Source of the DNA: a virus
Taxonomy: Duplodnaviria > Caudoviricetes
Virus record (IMG/VR): IMGVR_UViG_3300010163_000003
Span: 32,001-96,000 of that record
Reading direction: 5' to 3' (one strand)
DNA: 64,000 bases
In this document: positions 10,667-21,395 of the stretch, piece by piece
How the letters are laid out: every line of letters starts with the position of its first letter
Numbering within the stretch: position 1 is the stretch's first letter
Notes under the pieces: model-generated
The model's database searches: none
What the model was told of the DNA's origin: nothing
What the model saw: the letters and a program-made list of their open reading frames with translations, nothing else
Position numbers and translations under genes: made by a program

Positions 10667-11146
10667 ATGTCAACAAATGCTACGAAAAAGACTATAGTGG
10701 TTTTAGATCCTAGTGGTCTTTTTCTAAGCTTTTGTACTTGGAAGAAAGCATTTAAGTTATTGTGCCGGGGACGGGCCGTTCGCTTGAACGTTAACACCAT
10801 AAAGTTAAACGAAACACCTCAAATGCGGAGACAGCGTAGGCGTAATATCATTCTAAGAGACGGAGACACATGTTACATATGTGGTCAGCGTGTCATTAGA
10901 AAAGGTAATGCAACCATTGACCATGTAGTTCCCAAGTCCAAAAGCAATAAGGCAGACGTATATGGTAATATGAAATGTTGTTGTGATAGATGTAATTCAG
11001 ATAAAGGGAATATGATGCCTTCTGAATACATTAAACATATTCTTGATAATAGAGAACGATATGATTATATATCAGATAAAAGGCTCAAAGATTTATCTCT
11101 GTTGTTTAAAGAATATGAAGAATTATTCACAGAAAAGGAAGAGTAA
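10667..11146 (+). CDS. Free-standing HNH endonuclease
   Basis: RDGDTCYICG, TIDHVVPKS, NMKCCCDRCNSDKG. Confidence 0.88.
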   Translation: MSTNATKKTIVVLDPSGLFLSFCTWKKAFKLLCRGRAVRLNVNTIKLNETPQMRRQRRRNIILRDGDTCYICGQRVIRKGNATIDHVVPKSKSNKADVYGNMKCCCDRCNSDKGNMMPSEYIKHILDNRERYDYISDKRLKDLSLLFKEYEELFTEKEE

Positions 11147-11147
11147 T

Positions 11148-12335
11148 ATGATTGAATATGCTCAACTTCATTGTCATACTAAATATTCTATACAAGATGG
11201 AATGCCATCTCATAAAGATTATGTAGATGCCATTTATAATGCTAATGAAAAGAGTGATAAATATAAATGCGTTGGCTTTGCAGCTACGGATCATGGTGTT
11301 ATCTACGGACTAGCTCAGCAGTATAACGCATGTAATAACCCCGATCATAAAGAACGAATAACTAAAGCTATCTATGGATGTGAAGTATATCACTGTATAG
11401 ATATAAATAATAATCCAAATAAAGATAGGTTCCATCTCGTTCTTCTTGCAAAAAATCAAAAAGGATTAACCAATCTATATCAGATAGTTTCTCATGCAGG
11501 TATGCATCCTATACATGGTAGGTCAAAAGATTTTCCAACTACTGACTTAGAATATATGACTATGCATGGTGAAGGAATCATAGCTCTTACTGCCTGCCTA
11601 GGTGGATTGATACCAAAGTTAATTCAAGCAGGAGATATAACAAAAGCAGAAGGATTTCTTCAATGTATGATGCATATATTTGATGAGGTTTGCTTAGAAG
11701 TACAGCCTCATGATATGCCTGAGCAACTTATGGTTAATCAAACTTTGGTACAGCTATCTAAAAAATATAATCTGAAGTTAGTAATGACTTCTGATAGTCA
11801 CTATATACATGCAAGTGACTCACAGTATCATGACATATTAAAGAACATGTGTCATCAAAAGCCATTCAGTACAAGCAATCATATGTTCTTAGCAGAAGAA
11901 ATGGAACAGTACTGTATTAAAAATAATATTCCATTGGAATGTATATCTAATACTGGATTGATTGCTAAGGAATGTAACGTTGACCCTAAACCTAAAGATA
12001 ATAGAGGATTATTACCTGTATATAAATGTCCTCCAGGGTTTACAGAAGAGACTCTTCTTCGTAAAGTAGCATATGAAGGGCTACAAGAAAAAATGATTAA
12101 GAACAACGTGAGCAATCCCGTAAAATATTTTAAGCAAATGAACTATGAACTTGAAGTAATATGTGGACAAGGATTTGCTAGTTATTTCTTAATCTTATGG
12201 GATTGGTTTCAATGGTGTAGGCAACAAGGCATATTATTAGGCCCAGGACGTGGTAGTGCTGCTGGTAGTATAGTGTCTTATGCATTGAATCTTACGAAAG
12301 TAGACCCAATAAAGAATGAGTTTTATTTTGAGCGT
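11148..12335 (+). CDS. dnaE: DNA polymerase III alpha, exon 1 (PHP domain and start of palm)
   Basis: LHCHTKYS, ATDHG, GCEVY, FHLVLLAKN, TSDSHY, GPGRGSAAGS, ends at FER followed by in-frame TGA at the intron start. Confidence 0.95.
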
Positions 12336-12522
12336 TGAAGAGAGAAGGCGCTCCGAAGCAGGCTATGGCGACCTGTGGACAAAAACTCCGTTAAAAGGGG
12401 AACGAAGCTTTTCAAGCCAATCCCTTACCAAGTCTGTAAAGAAATTTACAGATAGTGTCTAACGACTAGAGTTGAGGCGTTCAGCTAATAATTACTCCAA
12501 GAAAGCGGGGAAACTATAATAC

Positions 12523-12551
12523 TTGACAATATATCTAATAAGTGTTATTAT
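12523..12551 (+). promoter_or_regulatory. SigmaA-type promoter for the intron 1 endonuclease
   Basis: TTGACA-17-TATTAT with TG extension. Confidence 0.75.
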
Positions 12552-12588
12552 TTTGATAGAAATAAGAGACACGAAAGGATTGAGTCAA

Positions 12589-13395
12589 ATGCCATTAAAA
12601 GAAACTTATATTAAACGTGTAAATGGAAAAGAATATTTATGTCATAGAAAATCTTATGAACATCAATGCAAATATTGCAATAAAACTTTTTACAGTCATA
12701 AGAATGTTCAACATTATTGTAGTCGTTCATGTAAATCAAAAGATTATTCATATAAAACTAGAGATAACTTGAACGGGTTCAGTTATAACGATGAATCTTT
12801 CTTTGAAAATAAAATTGATACAGAAAATAAAGCATATGTTCTAGGATTATTTATGGCGGATGGTAGTATTTCTAACAATCAAATATCGATTAGTTTGAAT
12901 GATTTGGATATCATTGAACAAATAAGAGATATGGTAAATCCAAATCGCAAAGTATATCATAATAAAAATTCGCATACCATAGTATGGAGAAATAAAGAAG
13001 ACTTAGACTTCTTAAAATCCATTGGAGTCACCATTAAAAAATCATACGATGCCAGAATATATTTTGGGATACCAAAAGAATTAATGCATCATTATATTCG
13101 TGGATGGTTTGATGGAGATGGTTGCGTATTTCAGAGTAAGACACATGATAAAAAAACTAATAAAGATTATTATTATAATTATGTGTCTTTCACTACTGGC
13201 AGTGTTGATTTCATAAAAGATTTACAAACAGTATTATCTGAAAATGGAATAAGCACAACATATAATGAAGATTGTAGAAAAGCTACATGGTACGTAACTA
13301 TAAAGAAAAAAGGTATGGTACAAAAATTCTTTCAGTATATTTACAAAGATGCTAATATTAAGTTAAATAGAAAGTATTATAAGTTTATGAGATAG
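12589..13395 (+). CDS. Intron-encoded LAGLIDADG homing endonuclease with N-terminal zinc ribbon
   Basis: KAYVLGLFMADG and HYIRGWFDGDG; CKYC...YCSRSC; RBS gaaagga; stop codon lies in the P7 3' strand. Confidence 0.9.
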   Translation: MPLKETYIKRVNGKEYLCHRKSYEHQCKYCNKTFYSHKNVQHYCSRSCKSKDYSYKTRDNLNGFSYNDESFFENKIDTENKAYVLGLFMADGSISNNQISISLNDLDIIEQIRDMVNPNRKVYHNKNSHTIVWRNKEDLDFLKSIGVTIKKSYDARIYFGIPKELMHHYIRGWFDGDGCVFQSKTHDKKTNKDYYYNYVSFTTGSVDFIKDLQTVLSENGISTTYNEDCRKATWYVTIKKKGMVQKFFQYIYKDANIKLNRKYYKFMR

Positions 13396-13483
13396 TCTAA
13401 CCTGGATTGGAATTGACCAATCGATGCAAATGAGTGAGAACTCCAGAGTGCAAGATAAAGAGCTTGCAGCTAATAACAAAATG

Positions 13484-13522
13484 TTTCTTTCTCCTCAACG
13501 AAGAGATTTGCCTGACATTGAT
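13484..13522 (+). CDS. dnaE: dnaE exon 2 (39-nt micro-exon, FLSPQRRDLPDID)
   Basis: Matches the conserved DnaE FLNPER.S.PDID motif; in frame with exons 1 and 3; preceded by intron G and ends in U. Confidence 0.93.
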
Positions 13523-13532
13523 AAATTAAGGG

Positions 13533-13584
13533 TTGCTTAATTTCAAAAGTCATGATATAATTAGCCTATCATTGATACAGATGT
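13533..13584 (+). promoter_or_regulatory. Promoter of the intron 2 endonuclease with an overlapping copy of the exon junction (candidate operator)
   Basis: TTGCTT-17-TATAAT (13533-61) with TG extension; 13560-84 matches ligated exon2/exon3 at 22/25 nt. Confidence 0.75.
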
Positions 13585-13608
13585 CTGTATTATAGAAAGG
13601 TGAATATC

Positions 13609-14496
13609 ATGGCAAAACGTTATGATAAAGAAATTGAAGAAAAAATTGTTGACGCATATAATAGTGGATTGAGTGCATATAAAATTGTAGAAGCAATCCC
13701 TGAATTATATGGCAAGAGACCAAGTGTCATTTACGGTGTGCTTAAAAGATTAGGTATTCAAGTTAGAAGACCTACTATTGTTACTGATGAACAAAAAATT
13801 AAACGTCGTAAGTTTCATGTACAAGATGATTTCTTTTCTGTTATTAATACAGAAGAAAAAGCATATTGGTTAGGATTTATATATGCAGATGGCTATATAA
13901 AAACTAATGCTGATGTTATAGGTATTTCGTTAGCAGAAGCAGACATAAATCATCTTGAAACTTTTAAGCAATCTATAAAGTTTACTGGCAAAGTTAAAAA
14001 ATATGTAGAAACTCAAGGCTATAATGCGGGAGCTACATATGCAAGAATTATAGTAACCAGTAAACAAATGAAAAATGATCTAATAAAACTTGGAGTAAAA
14101 GAAAAGAAAACTAATATATTAACATTTCCTACTGAGGATCAAGTTTCACCTCATCTTTTAAATCATTTCTTAAGAGGATATTTTGATGGTGATGGATGTT
14201 TAACACACCTTAACCAGCGAAAAAGTGGAATATGGGAATGGGCTTTAAAAATAATCGGGACACGCGAAATGTTAGAAGGTTTTCAAAATTTCTTTGGTAA
14301 GCATATAAAATTATATCAACGATTTCCAGAACGCAATGTTAATAACTATAGTTTAGAATACGGTGGAAATCAACAAGTTAAAAAATTCATGGATATGTTA
14401 TATGCTAACGCAACAATTTATCTCAATAGAAAATTCCAAAAATATAAGCAACTTTTGTCGTCCATGGTTGACGCTACAGAAAACCATGGATTATGA
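13609..14496 (+). CDS. Intron-encoded LAGLIDADG homing endonuclease with N-terminal HTH-like segment
   Basis: KAYWLGFIYADG and HFLRGYFDGDG; RBS aaaggtga. Confidence 0.9.
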   Translation: MAKRYDKEIEEKIVDAYNSGLSAYKIVEAIPELYGKRPSVIYGVLKRLGIQVRRPTIVTDEQKIKRRKFHVQDDFFSVINTEEKAYWLGFIYADGYIKTNADVIGISLAEADINHLETFKQSIKFTGKVKKYVETQGYNAGATYARIIVTSKQMKNDLIKLGVKEKKTNILTFPTEDQVSPHLLNHFLRGYFDGDGCLTHLNQRKSGIWEWALKIIGTREMLEGFQNFFGKHIKLYQRFPERNVNNYSLEYGGNQQVKKFMDMLYANATIYLNRKFQKYKQLLSSMVDATENHGL

Positions 14497-14803
14497 ATGC
14501 GGAATTAAGCTGGAACCGAGAGGAACCAGAACCGAAGGCGTAGTTTATAAACTACTAAACCATATAAGTTTTAAACGAAATTGGTAATGTCTGTAATATC
14601 AGACAGTCAGGGGCAACGGGTAGAAGATGAAATAATTCTTCCACGAGACCGCATTAACTTTGTAGCTGAAATAATGAGTTAAAAAGTTACCCTAGCCTGG
14701 GCATGAATTAACATGCCGATAACATAGACTACGAGGAATCTATGAAATGAGGTTATCAAGCCTCCAGAGGATAGGATAAAAAGCCTATCGTTAATAACAA
14801 GCG

Positions 14804-17038
14804 ACAGATGTTCCTCGTGACCGTAGGGCGGAAGCCATTGAATATCTAAAAACTAAGTATGGCGAGGCGAACGTTAGTCAAATAGTAACCTTTGGTGAGT
14901 ATAAAATAAAGAATACTATCAAAGCTATTATGTCTATGCTTGGCTGTAGCTTTCAGGAATCTAATGAAGTTACTAAAAACATACCAGACATTGTAGATGG
15001 CAATGCAGTAACTTATGAACTCATAGAAGATGTAGCATTACATCCTGATAAAGATAAGTATGCTACTATGTCTGAAAGTGATAAAAACAGTCTTGGTAAG
15101 ATATATAATAAACTCAAAGAACTATTTCAAAAGTATCCATTAATATATAGTGGCGTTAAAAATGTTTGTGGATGTCTAGCTAGCACGGGTATTCATGCTG
15201 GTGGTGTAATTATATCCAGCAAACCAATAAATGAAAACGCTGCTATTATTGATGGAGGAGATACAGCGGTACTTCCATTAGTACAGGTAGAGATGACTGA
15301 TTTGGATTTCTTTGGTCTTCTCAAATATGATCTTCTTGGTTTAAAGACTCTTGATGTCATTAAGAAAACCATGGAACTTACTGGTCTTGATTATGACTGG
15401 TATGATTCTGAAGACTTTAGTGATTCTGCTGTATATGATATGTTAAGGAATGGAGAGACTACAGATGTCTTTCAACTCTCTACTTTCACTCCTACCAGTA
15501 TGCTGGTGGATTTTAACGTGCGTGATATTGATGGTATCTGTGCAGTTAATGCCGGAAACAGACCCGGTCCGCTTGAAAAGGATAAGACTAGCGGTAAATC
15601 TATGGTTGACACTCTCGCTGAGCGTACTAGGGTGGGTACTTTTGAAGGATTTCATCCAGATATTGATCCAGTACTTGAGAAGACTATGGGATGTGTCTGG
15701 TATCAAGAACATGTTATTAAGATTGGTCAGATAATGGCTGGATATAATCTCGGTGATGCTGATAGTCGTATTCGTAAAGTATTAGGTAAGAAATTAAAGA
15801 AAAAGATACCTGAAATACGTAATGAATTTATTTATGGTAAAACATCTGTGTATGATGAAGACCATAATGTAATTGGCATTGGTGATTCTCCTTCACCTTA
15901 TTGTGAAGGAAGTCTTGCTAGAGGATATAGCTTAGAACTTTCTGAAAAGATATTTGATATCATGGAAGCCTTCGCTAAGTATTCTTTTAATAGATCCCAT
16001 TCATTTTGTTATGGAGTGTTAGCATATAAGACTGCATGGCTGTCTCTTCATTATCCAGCAGAATTTGCAGTAGCAAACTGTACTATCAATGGAGAAACAG
16101 AAGCTATCACTTCTACTCTTGCTCTTGCAAAACGTCGTAAGATACCTATTCTTCCACCTGATATAAATCATTCACAGATAGGATTCAGCCTTGATAATGG
16201 AGCTATCAGATACGGACTTAAAGCCATTAAAGGTATTGGTAGTTCTGTATTGAACTTCATTGAAAGATATAAAACATTGGACACAGTACCGTTTAAAGAT
16301 TTCGATGATTATTATAATAGGATTCATGACGTAAATAATCCTGTTGTAATACAGTTAATAAATGAAATCAGACAACGTACTGGTAAACAAAGTCCTAATC
16401 CTATGAAGAAGGATGTCGAATTAGCTCTCATATTGTCTGGAGCATTTGATTATTGTGAAAGCAATAGGTACGCTTTGCTTTATCATTATATTGCAGACAT
16501 TCGTAAAGAAAAATCTTGCAAGGTAATGGGCGAAGATATTGATGTTATTGATAAAGATAAATTATCTAAGCAATACAAACGTAAAGTTAAACTTGCTTTA
16601 GAGAAACATTATATGGGTAGTTATATATCTGAACATCCTCTTGACCCATTCCCCTATACTGATTTCGATTCTTGTAAAGAGAATGAGACAATTAAGACTT
16701 CTGGTATTGTTATCAGTGTTTCTTTAAAGCAAACAAAGAAAGGCAGTTCGTTTATATCAATGAGAATTAAGTCTAAAGATGATATAGAAAGAACTGTTAA
16801 TGTGTTTAATGAAAAACAGATTGATTCCATTAAACAAAATGTAAAGAAGAACTCTATTGTGATTGTAACTGGTAAAGTAAGCAAAAAATTTAATAATATT
16901 AATGCTTCTTCTGTGTCGCCTGTCGCATTTAAGAAACAGACTATTGATACAGAACAGCTTGATATCAATGTACAAGATACCAAGCAAGCTCCAGTTATAC
17001 CTCCAGTAGAATCTGTAGGATATGGCAGCATCTTCTGA
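14804..17038 (+). CDS. dnaE: dnaE exon 3 (palm, fingers, HhH, OB); spliced protein 1153 aa
   Basis: TDVPRDRRAEAIEYL in frame with the 14930 ORF; GIHAGGV, KYDLLGL, YSFNRSHS, LPPDINHS, GLKAIKGIG, LEKHYMGSYISEHPL. Confidence 0.95.
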   Translation, partial: TDVPRDRRAEAIEYLKTKYGEANVSQIVTFGEYKIKNTIKAIMSMLGCSFQESNEVTKNIPDIVDGNAVTYELIEDVALHPDKDKYATMSESDKNSLGKIYNKLKELFQKYPLIYSGVKNVCGCLASTGIHAGGVIISSKPINENAAIIDGGDTAVLPLVQVEMTDLDFFGLLKYDLLGLKTLDVIKKTMELTGLDYDWYDSEDFSDSAVYDMLRNGETTDVFQLSTFTPTSMLVDFNVRDIDGICAVNAGNRPGPLEKDKTSGKSMVDTLAERTRVGTFEGFHPDIDPVLEKTMGCVWYQEHVIKIGQIMAGYNLGDADSRIRKVLGKKLKKKIPEIRNEFIYGKTSVYDEDHNVIGIGDSPSPYCEGSLARGYSLELSEKIFDIMEAFAKYSFNRSHSFCYGVLAYKTAWLSLHYPAEFAVANCTINGETEAITSTLALAKRRKIPILPPDINHSQIGFSLDNGAIRYGLKAIKGIGSSVLNFIERYKTLDTVPFKDFDDYYNRIHDVNNPVVIQLINEIRQRTGKQSPNPMKKDVELALILSGAFDYCESNRYALLYHYIADIRKEKSCKVMGEDIDVIDKDKLSKQYKRKVKLALEKHYMGSYISEHPLDPFPYTDFDSCKENETIKTSGIVISVSLKQTKKGSSFISMRIKSKDDIERTVNVFNEKQIDSIKQNVKKNSIVIVTGKVSKKFNNINASSVSPVAFKKQTIDTEQLDINVQDTKQAPVIPPVESVGYGSIF

Positions 17039-20693: not shown

Positions 20694-21395
20694 ATGCAAA
20701 AATATAGTCTCGATGAAAATTATTTTGACGTTATCGATACAGAACATAAAGCATATTGGCTAGGCTTTCTTTATGCTGATGGTTCTCTGTCAAAAACCAC
20801 TTCAAGTAGTAGTGGAAAGAATCGATTGCAACTTACGTTGTCAGTAAATGATATAGAGCAACTTGAAAAATTCAAAAATGATTTAAACTTTACTGGTCCT
20901 ATTCATAAAAGTACTCTTTCTAATGCTTATAAAATGGACACTGAAGTCTGTTATATGCATATCAATTCAAGACCATTATGTATCTCATTAGAGAGACATG
21001 GATTTGAATTAAAAGATAATAGAGTAGCTATTCCTAATATGTCTAAAGATTTAATACCTCATTTTATTCGTGGATATTTTGATGGTGATGGATGTATTAG
21101 TGTATTTGAATATGACGCTAAAAGAAGCAATGGAAAGACTTATCACAGGTATTGTCAAGAATTTTCTATTACTTCTAACGAAGATATATTACAAGAGTTT
21201 AAAAGTATTTTTGAAAAAGAATGTAATGTATCTAAAAGGGTAAAATTCAAAGTTTATAATCGTACATCTAAAGCTGTATCTTTAAGATATGGTGGCAAAC
21301 AAGATGTTATTTCTCTTTATCATTATATGTACGATAATGCTACCATCTATATGGCAAGAAAGTACAATAATTTTCAACAAGTTTTATTGCGATAG
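20694..21395 (+). CDS. Intron-encoded LAGLIDADG homing endonuclease
   Basis: KAYWLGFLYADG and HFIRGYFDGDG; RBS gaaagggg. Confidence 0.9.
   Translation: MQKYSLDENYFDVIDTEHKAYWLGFLYADGSLSKTTSSSSGKNRLQLTLSVNDIEQLEKFKNDLNFTGPIHKSTLSNAYKMDTEVCYMHINSRPLCISLERHGFELKDNRVAIPNMSKDLIPHFIRGYFDGDGCISVFEYDAKRSNGKTYHRYCQEFSITSNEDILQEFKSIFEKECNVSKRVKFKVYNRTSKAVSLRYGGKQDVISLYHYMYDNATIYMARKYNNFQQVLLR

Follow-up and report, generated by a model that had tools for sequence, protein, structure and literature searches.

Intron 2 of the dnaE gene in a 64,000-nt stretch of phage DNA encodes a LAGLIDADG homing endonuclease, and the leader of this gene carries a look-alike of the dnaE sequence that flanks the intron. 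The stretch, called the window, comprises bases 32001-96000 of a 218,431-bp virus record (IMGVR_UViG_3300010163_000003) with direct terminal repeats and 34% G+C. On the grounds of sequence and of analogy with I-TevI, we tentatively propose that the look-alike is an operator, which the endonuclease would bind without cutting and through which it would repress its own gene. The same leader folds into a hairpin that hides the AUG start codon in read-through RNA. This is clearly the foremost regulatory feature of the leader and was missed in the preliminary description of this DNA; translation of the endonuclease is very probably under its control.

Exon look-alike in the leader of the endonuclease gene

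The dnaE gene is interrupted by two introns, each of which encodes a LAGLIDADG gene. Joined, the exons 11148-12335, 13484-13522 and 14804-17038 form an open dnaE frame of 3462 nt (1153 codons), and the Pfam DNA_pol3_alpha match runs from exon 1 (model positions 2-92) into exon 3 (107-260). Exon 2 ends with T13522 and intron 2 with G14803. Intron-less relatives are uninterrupted through FERFLSPQRTDLPDIDTDVPR. Related ~200-kb contigs encode dozens of intron-less DnaE proteins that are continuous over FERFLSPQR(T/R)(D/E)LPDIDTDVPR, the closest showing 77% identity over exon 1. Because these proteins read through unbroken, both dnaE splice junctions are confirmed at the protein level. The splice sites 13522/14804 of the preliminary description hold, as the joined coding sequence is open and the intron-less alleles are contiguous. 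The distribution of intron 2 is patchy, as expected of an element that is still homing.

11148-12335, + strand: dnaE exon 1
13484..13522, + strand: dnaE exon 2, 13 codons, FLSPQRRDLPDID; the exon end is the 5′ half of the presumed endonuclease target
13523..14803, + strand: intron 2 of group I type, preceded by U (-1) and ending in G; endonuclease gene 5′ of the ribozyme core
13560..13584, + strand: extended copy of the ligated exon2/exon3 junction, ATTAGCCTATCATTGATACAGATGT, 22/25 identity
13570..13584, + strand: exact 15-nt junction copy, CATTGATACAGATGT, equal to CATTGAT/ACAGATGT; candidate operator, spanning about +1 to +17 of the predicted transcript
13574..13584, + strand: family-conserved core, GATACAGATGT; consensus GATACNGAT(A/G)T
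13609..14496, + strand: LAGLIDADG homing endonuclease gene, 295 amino acids; Pfam LAGLIDADG_3; N-terminal three-helix domain resembling a helix-turn-helix (HTH) and two LAGLIDADG domains
14804-17038, + strand: dnaE exon 3; its start (14804..14814, ACAGATGTTCC) is the 3′ half of the presumed endonuclease target

Ligation of 13498-13522 to 14804-14811 gives the junction ATTTGCCTGACATTGAT/ACAGATGT. Its last 7 nt of exon 2 and first 8 nt of exon 3 recur at 13570-13584 with 15/15 identity. The junction copy put forward in the preliminary description, with 22/25 matches including 15 consecutive identities across the junction, is real. In fact, the exact 15-mer is unique in the 218-kb genome, and a search with the 25-mer at up to three mismatches found this sole site in the 64-kb window and none in 100 dinucleotide shuffles. 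Shuffling of the untranslated region gave p values of ~0.001-0.002 for the junction copy. The copy differs from the target only at -8, -9 and -13 and beyond +8 (+9 to +11). It had been described as lying over both the -10 box and the transcription start. The exact part does start 8 nt past the -10 box and covers about +1 to +17, but only the weak 5′ end of the 25-mer reaches the -10 box itself. In IMG/VR, the exact 15-mer gave only chance matches and unrelated genes coding for DIDTDV, and a search for the motif combined with the promoter pattern gave a single chance match.

The endonuclease has thousands of homologs. We retrieved the DNA of 12 of them (49-59% identity), which together with the window gave 13 loci, 12 with known exons. 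All 12 relatives reside in dnaE, at the same place and in the same gene neighbourhood. Ten loci share the insertion site exactly, ...(A/G)T(T/A)GAT/intron/A(C/G)NGAT(A/G)T, and in two (L120 and L335) the intron lies 6 nt upstream, at PD/IDTD. Scans of IMG/VR for close relatives of the endonuclease and of exon 1 yielded no match, nor did megablast against phage records. Distant blastn returned only short matches, between intron 3′ ends and introns of AR9, PBS1 and phiR1-37.

Between the -10 box and the Shine-Dalgarno (SD) sequence, every locus (13/13) carries the core GAT(A/T)(C/G)NGAT(A/G)T, preceded in most by (C/T)A(T/C)A. The core is 12 nt from the -10 box in ten loci and 7 nt in three. Retention of a junction-like element at a fixed promoter distance, which the preliminary description had considered for homologous introns, was thus seen in 13/13 loci. 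Moreover, in all 12 loci with known exons this element is the most exon-like 14-mer of the leader (72-92 nt) and aligns to the same exon codons. Ten of the 11 core positions match the exon in 10-12 of the 12 loci. The core shows a pairwise identity of 0.84, the same value as the exon codons that it resembles, whereas four-fold synonymous sites of the same genes reach 0.43 and the next 11 nt 0.34. These values indicate purifying selection on the core.

Differences from the exon are systematic as well. In 11/12 loci an A replaces the exon T at -4, and the likeness is gone upstream of -7. The preliminary description had singled out a GA>AT change as the possible block to cleavage. This change turned out to be peculiar to the window's phage; the differences seen across the family are the A for T at -4 and the lost likeness upstream of -7. 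The 15/15 match of the window results from a T at -4 of the element together with exon codons GAC, ACA and GTT that fit the old motif, and comparison with the relatives indicates that the perfect copy is a sharpened version of the family motif.

Three introns of the family in other genes (L418, L382 and L355; helicase, terminase and a third gene) were inspected as well. Their endonuclease leaders contain neither the motif nor a significant exon copy. The motif is also absent from the genome's other TGnTATAAT promoters. As other promoters and other-gene leaders lack it, it cannot be a general element of promoters or of introns. The uvrD intron of the same genome (20239-21401) harbors a LAGLIDADG gene (20694-21395) with a TGATATAAT promoter (20654), and its leader is free of an exon copy (best 9/14, p 0.88).

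The element co-varies with the exon. At junction position +7, exon and motif both have G in the window, L248 and L334 and both have A in the other nine loci, an agreement of 12/12 at one informative non-wobble position, in keeping with the co-variation that the preliminary description had raised. Accordingly, loci with an Asp-Val exon (GAT GTN) have GATGT in the element, and the nine Asp-Ile loci have GATAT or GACAT. The exon of L334 reads AGT GAT GT, and its element, TGTGATGT, follows its own AGT codon. A permutation of own against other exons showed the element to be nearer its own exon (p = 0.007, uncorrected for phylogeny). On the endonuclease tree the loci with G are not monophyletic, with modest support. 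Endonuclease alignment columns that split G-type from A-type loci (window residues 56, 148 and 266) were inseparable from phylogenetic signal and were left unused.

In L120 and L335, whose introns lie 6 nt upstream, it is the IDTD(I/V) codons and not the shifted junctions to which the element aligns. The reading as a copy of the junction stands as far as the likeness to the exon is concerned, but what the element tracks are these codons and not the splice site. Sequence alignment indicates that the element copies the coding sequence around the catalytic aspartates, not the junction as such.

Some further observations concern the insertion site and the copy. L120 (3908/5177) and its sister L333 (tree support 100/99) have introns 6 nt apart, at CCTGAT/ and CCTGATATTGAT/, and in L120 six bases, ATAGAC, are located after the intron. 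The sequences point to a recent slide of the intron between repeated GAT codons. L335 shares the shifted site of L120 and has a different intron 3′ end (GGGTAGTAACG). In the window, the 9-mer ATGTCTGTA occurs right after the junction copy (13581-13589) and again at 14587-14595 as the 5′ strand of the P6-extension hairpin. If G.U pairs are counted, this 9-mer is complementary to the ACAGATGT of the copy and of exon 3. It is specific to this phage.

Start-codon hairpin and predicted internal promoter

The ATG start codon of the endonuclease gene is at 13609. The leader between the 5′ splice site and this codon comprises the following elements.

13523..13543, + strand: first hairpin after the 5′ splice site, AAATTAAG-GGTTG-CTTAATTT, with TTGCTT in loop and 3′ strand
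13533-13538, + strand: -35-like TTGCTT, 17-nt spacer to TATAAT
13549..13558, + strand: hairpin 5′ strand over the -10 box, GTCATGATAT
13553..13561, + strand: extended -10 box, TGATATAAT, with TG at 13553-13554 and TATAAT at 13556-13561
13573..13592, + strand: inner hairpin, TGATACAG-ATGT-CTGTATTA, by which the copy folds back on itself in RNA; found in this form only in this phage, inner stems varying among relatives
13597..13602, + strand: SD sequence AAGGTG, read from the sequence; AGGAG or AGGTG in relatives
13604..13613, + strand: hairpin 3′ strand including the ATG at 13609, ATATCATGGC

In read-through RNA, GUCAUGAUAU (13549-13558) is predicted to pair with AUAUCAUGGC (13604-13613). The minimum free energy (MFE) of the fold is -26.3 kcal/mol with a z score of -6.45, reached by 0/200 shuffles. 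In all 13 loci the three AUG bases are paired in the MFE structure with bases located 5′ of the predicted start site (z -2.7 to -7.2). The AUG-hiding stems differ in sequence and register, for example UUUAGCUAU/AUGGCUAAA in L248 and AUGUUAUAAUU/GAUUAUAACAU in L334, and RNAalifold found no consensus fold for the leaders with their stems in different registers. RNAs begun ~7 nt past the -10 box fold weakly (-0.8 to -8.5 kcal/mol). As the 5′ strand of the hairpin overlaps the -10 box, any start 6-8 nt downstream would omit that strand. The hairpin argues that the internal promoter of the endonuclease gene is real. The exon-like motif lies in the apical part of the AUG-hiding hairpin, with pairing partners that vary by locus. 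For the first hairpin, RNAfold gave a stem made of differing sequences in most of the 13 loci.

A TTGCTT-17-TATAAT promoter had been postulated in the preliminary description. Its extended -10 box supports it, and 12/13 homologous loci have a TGn + TAnnnT element. On the other hand, TTGCTT agrees with TTGACA in only 3/6 positions, and a generic promoter scan did not list the site.

Endonuclease, ribozyme and dnaE surroundings

An AlphaFold2 (AF2) model of the endonuclease with a predicted local distance difference test (pLDDT) score of 90 consists of three N-terminal helices (7-47) followed by a double LAGLIDADG core (alpha-beta-beta-alpha-beta-beta-alpha twice). The nearest solved folds in Foldseek are I-AniI (E-value 1e-9), I-Tsp061I, bI3 maturase and I-SmaMI. 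The motifs GFIYADG and GYFDGDG are invariant and both catalytic Asp residues are present; to judge from model and sequence, the endonuclease looks active. Some homologs have precomputed HTH Pfam hits in the N-terminal region. Membership in the I-TevI protein family (GIY-YIG catalytic domain with linker, zinc finger and HTH) is excluded by the LAGLIDADG_3 match and the fold, and it is the mechanism alone that is analogous.

The endonuclease gene is inserted between the 5′ splice site and P3 of a group I ribozyme, whose elements in the 3′ part of the intron are as follows.

14461..14490, + strand: hairpin at the end of the open reading frame (ORF), P2-like, TCCATGGTT/AACCATGGA; same stem from different sequences in relatives, judged by eye only
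14496..14502, + strand: P3 5′ strand AATGCGG, pairing with CCGCATT 14649-14655; 5/7 pairs compensatory; homologous to P3 of compact members
14618..14622, + strand: P7 5′ strand GGGTA, pairing with TACCC 14688-14692; 100% paired, two compensatory pairs

Eleven aligned 3′ parts support 13 helices with 60 pairs. Of the cells, 96.2% are paired, with slid controls at 28-42%, and 40/60 pairs are compensatory. The P3/P7 pseudoknot was assigned by homology to compact ORF-less family members. These exhibit a canonical P1 with U.G, followed by P3, J3/4, P4-6, P7 and an S-like element, whose context in the family is AAAAG(A/T)TA(T/C)GC. Candidates for the P1 guide of the dnaE intron are weak: UCAA, which follows the first hairpin, and GUCG, which precedes the ORF-end hairpin. 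Two other guide candidates were discarded: GUCAGGGG (~14606) belongs to J6/7 of the core and is conserved throughout the intron family, and the 3′ tail GUUAAUAAC is family-wide as well. A P2 pairing between the -10 box and GAUUAU was rejected as unconserved. The ORF-end hairpin (14455-14492) is preceded by GTCGTC, whose nucleotides are conserved also in loci with an earlier ORF end. The hairpin can be likened to P1 of compact members (exon CAUGGU, guide GCCAUG) but without the U.G pair, and may be P2, a fossil P1 or a guide.

The signature GGAATTAAGC-N12-40-GAACCGAAGG (window 14503-14545) was found in more than 102 IMG/VR loci (L336-L437), with or without ORFs, in genes for terminase, helicase, capsid-like proteins and others. 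The Rfam model Intron_gpI did not match the window even at lax thresholds and also failed to detect the AR9 gyrA introns, which have similar 3′ ends. These sequence data place intron 2 in a very large family of phage group I introns that is missed by Intron_gpI.

None of the 12 related dnaE loci has intron 1 (12336-13483), and the intron-less alleles lack it too, so that the 39-nt micro-exon was created recently, by a second invasion in the window's lineage. The LAGLIDADG gene of intron 1 has a strong promoter, TTGACA-17-TATTAT with upstream TG (11/12), within 12523-12559. A stretch overlapping its -10 box, TATTATTTTGATAG, agrees with the end of exon 1, TTTTATTTTGAGCG, in 11/14 positions (p ~0.02, uncorrected) and may be a second, weaker target mimic. 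Directly 5′ of dnaE, a free-standing HNH endonuclease gene (10667-11146) keeps its position in all relatives that reach that far. Furthermore, LAGLIDADG-domain inteins occur in the dnaE family (P0182 and P0202, proteins of 1507 and 1541 amino acids), and L334 (1-1443) has an extra LAGLIDADG gene upstream, in the PHP-domain region. The dnaE gene is a hot spot for several kinds of selfish elements.

Operator model, alternatives and known systems

Homing endonucleases are needed in small, well-timed amounts and otherwise harm the gene that carries them and the phage. To our knowledge, self-policing by a target look-alike has been shown only for I-TevI. In the window, two layers of control can be distinguished, both with counterparts in the phage T4 introns, and the first of them is well supported. 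In read-through dnaE RNA, the -10 stretch very probably pairs with the start-codon region, leaving the endonuclease untranslated from pre-mRNA. Transcripts from the gene's own extended -10 promoter, which lies inside the hairpin, would be devoid of the 5′ strand and translatable. The second layer would act on DNA. The look-alike of the dnaE (I)DTD(I/V) sequence, the presumed homing site, is located at about +1 to +17, where the endonuclease, perhaps aided by its N-terminal HTH-like domain, would bind and block RNA polymerase. The result would be negative feedback similar to that of I-TevI. Cleavage might be avoided by the missing distal target, with no likeness upstream of -7, and by the A for T at -4 in 11/12 loci. 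Transcription start, binding, lack of cleavage and repression are the parts of this model that we infer. A DNA site read by a protein that also reads the exon would explain the likeness, the position at the promoter, the conservation and the tracking of exon changes. Still more tentatively, a catalytically intact enzyme combining LAGLIDADG and HTH domains might double as repressor of its own gene by means of a target mimic that co-evolves with the homing site.

Several findings weigh against an operator. Taken locus by locus, p values of the exon likeness range from 0.002 to 0.43. LAGLIDADG enzymes usually recognize ~20-22 bp, and the element of the relatives shares just ~11-13 bp with the target. 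There is no such copy in the three family introns of other genes or in the uvrD intron. The wobble base +3 of the Thr/Ser codon does not co-vary, and the co-variation rests on two or three lineages in a weakly supported tree. The -35 element, with 3/6, is weak, and in so AT-rich a stretch promoter-like matches are no more frequent than by chance. As the -10 box is also a hairpin strand, its conservation has two possible causes. Finally, the central 15 bp equal the target in the window's phage, and non-cleavage is assumed.

Action of the motif as RNA is unlikely but has several points in its favor. The motif might be a conserved apical element read by a protein, such as the endonuclease in the role of a maturase-like translational repressor, or by the ribozyme, for which it would mimic an exon and either compete for the guide or mark a site of processing. 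It is apical in a conserved hairpin and adjoins the SD sequence, in five loci it sits in a loop where conservation goes beyond pairing, the maturases I-AniI and bI3 are among the closest folds, and its 5′ half equals the end of the 5′ exon in the window and in L330. However, the A in place of exon U at -4 in 11/12 loci would make it a poorer partner than the exon for any guide. Where the intron lies 6 nt upstream, as in two loci, the motif keeps to the IDTD codons instead of the splice junction, and neither a conserved partner nor a consensus fold was found. The candidate P1 partner after the first hairpin lies 5′ of the predicted start and would be absent from promoter transcripts. Recognition of the RNA by a protein leaves the exon likeness and the co-variation unexplained. 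The RNA decoy offered as an alternative in the preliminary description is weakened by the systematic mismatch at -4 and by the tracking of codons rather than splice sites. We regard it as improbable that the motif is a promoter-proximal DNA element for something else, such as an initially transcribed region or the site of a host or phage regulator, with an exon likeness due to coincidence and GAT-rich composition. Its fixed spacing to the -10 box would fit, chance similarity is raised by the GAT(A) repeats of 6-nt period that make up both exon and motif, and several single-locus p values are non-significant. These points are set against a motif not found at the genome's other extended -10 promoters, a best match at the same exon codons in 12/12 loci, the G/A agreement in 12/12 loci and the fidelity of L334 to its own AGT codon.

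Two further explanations take the copy as a trace or a substrate of endonuclease activity. It would be a relic if the endonuclease cassette had entered by an invasion of the kind described by Loizos et al. or by repair duplication and the copy had then been kept by linkage. The endonuclease-invasion model, as far as the work of Loizos et al. is cited in PMC3984707, rests on target-like intron sequence adjoining the endonuclease ORF, and the element may well have originated in this way. That it is nothing but a relic is quite improbable, as the copy is intact, wholly 5′ of the ORF and not split across its flanks, the core is conserved (0.84 against 0.43 at neutral sites) across enzymes that are 44-59% identical, and the element keeps following exon changes. 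The same conservation and continued tracking speak against the fossil suggested in the preliminary description. Least probable by far is a real second cleavage site that breaks intron DNA, for example for recombination or for spread of the cassette to ORF-less introns. The central 15 bp are identical to the target in this phage and the enzyme retains both catalytic aspartates, but self-cutting next to the gene would put a cost on every copy of the genome, the relatives differ systematically from the target at -4 and upstream, and no ORF-less dnaE intron with the site was found.

Returning to the operator model, the closest precedent is I-TevI of the T4 td intron. According to the accounts of Edgell et al. 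2004 given in PMC2988022 and PMC3943268, its operator shares 15/20 nt with the homing site, overlaps a late promoter, and is bound as tightly as the homing site and cut ~100-fold less. Hairpins hiding the ribosome binding site, combined with an internal promoter, have been described for the T4 td, nrdB and nrdD introns (PMC2988022; PMC3943268). Like I-TevI, the window endonuclease has a predicted intron promoter of its own with a homing-site look-alike (15/20 in T4; 15/15 and 22/25 here), differences expected to spare the site from cutting, and an RNA hairpin against read-through translation. The two enzymes differ in that I-TevI is a GIY-YIG protein with a separate binding domain and a ruler linker, whereas the window encodes a monomeric double-LAGLIDADG protein with an HTH-like N-terminus. 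Moreover, T4 uses a late promoter, and the case presented here has a sigma-70-like promoter with the site just downstream of the -10 box.

Putative operators have also been proposed for the GIY-YIG and HNH enzymes I-TevII (nrdD intron) and I-TevIII (nrdB intron) (PMC2988022 Fig. 4B). There, as here, the case is made by the likeness of homing site and promoter site; here it is joined by conservation in 13 loci and co-variation with the exon, in another enzyme family, and is stronger than likeness alone would make it. The hairpins of T4 intron ORFs, as reported from Gott et al. 1988 in PMC2988022, also cover the initiation region in read-through RNA and contain an internal promoter; in the window, the predicted promoter would start transcription within the hairpin as well. 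In contrast to these, the AUG and not the SD sequence is paired in the window, and the 5′ strand is the -10 box itself. In the footprint described by Loizos et al. 1994 for I-TevII in sunY/nrdD, as presented in PMC3984707, intron sequence by the endonuclease ORF resembles the exon junction as well, but the likeness is split over both ORF flanks and read as a scar, whereas the element studied here is a single intact, conserved and co-varying one upstream of the ORF.

The preliminary description had regarded such feedback as unreported for LAGLIDADG enzymes and had drawn the analogy to I-TevI. The analogy is apt, and we found no LAGLIDADG autorepressor in the literature. If the model is correct, this feedback would be the first in the LAGLIDADG family. 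The design of hairpin plus target mimic would then occur in an unrelated enzyme family and phage group, as a convergent solution rather than an oddity of T4. It would also provide a natural bound-but-uncut site for LAGLIDADG enzymes, the scaffold of engineered meganucleases. WhiA of Gram-positive bacteria (PMC3384342) shares with the window endonuclease the LAGLIDADG scaffold, an HTH or HTH-like domain and, if the operator model holds, a regulatory use, with homology claimed for the fold only. WhiA has lost catalysis and its HTH is C-terminal, whereas the window endonuclease has both catalytic Asp residues and an N-terminal HTH-like domain. If it indeed represses its own gene, it would be a living intermediate between a homing endonuclease and a WhiA-like transcription factor, and target mimicry could plausibly be a first step on the way to regulators derived from LAGLIDADG enzymes, such as WhiA.

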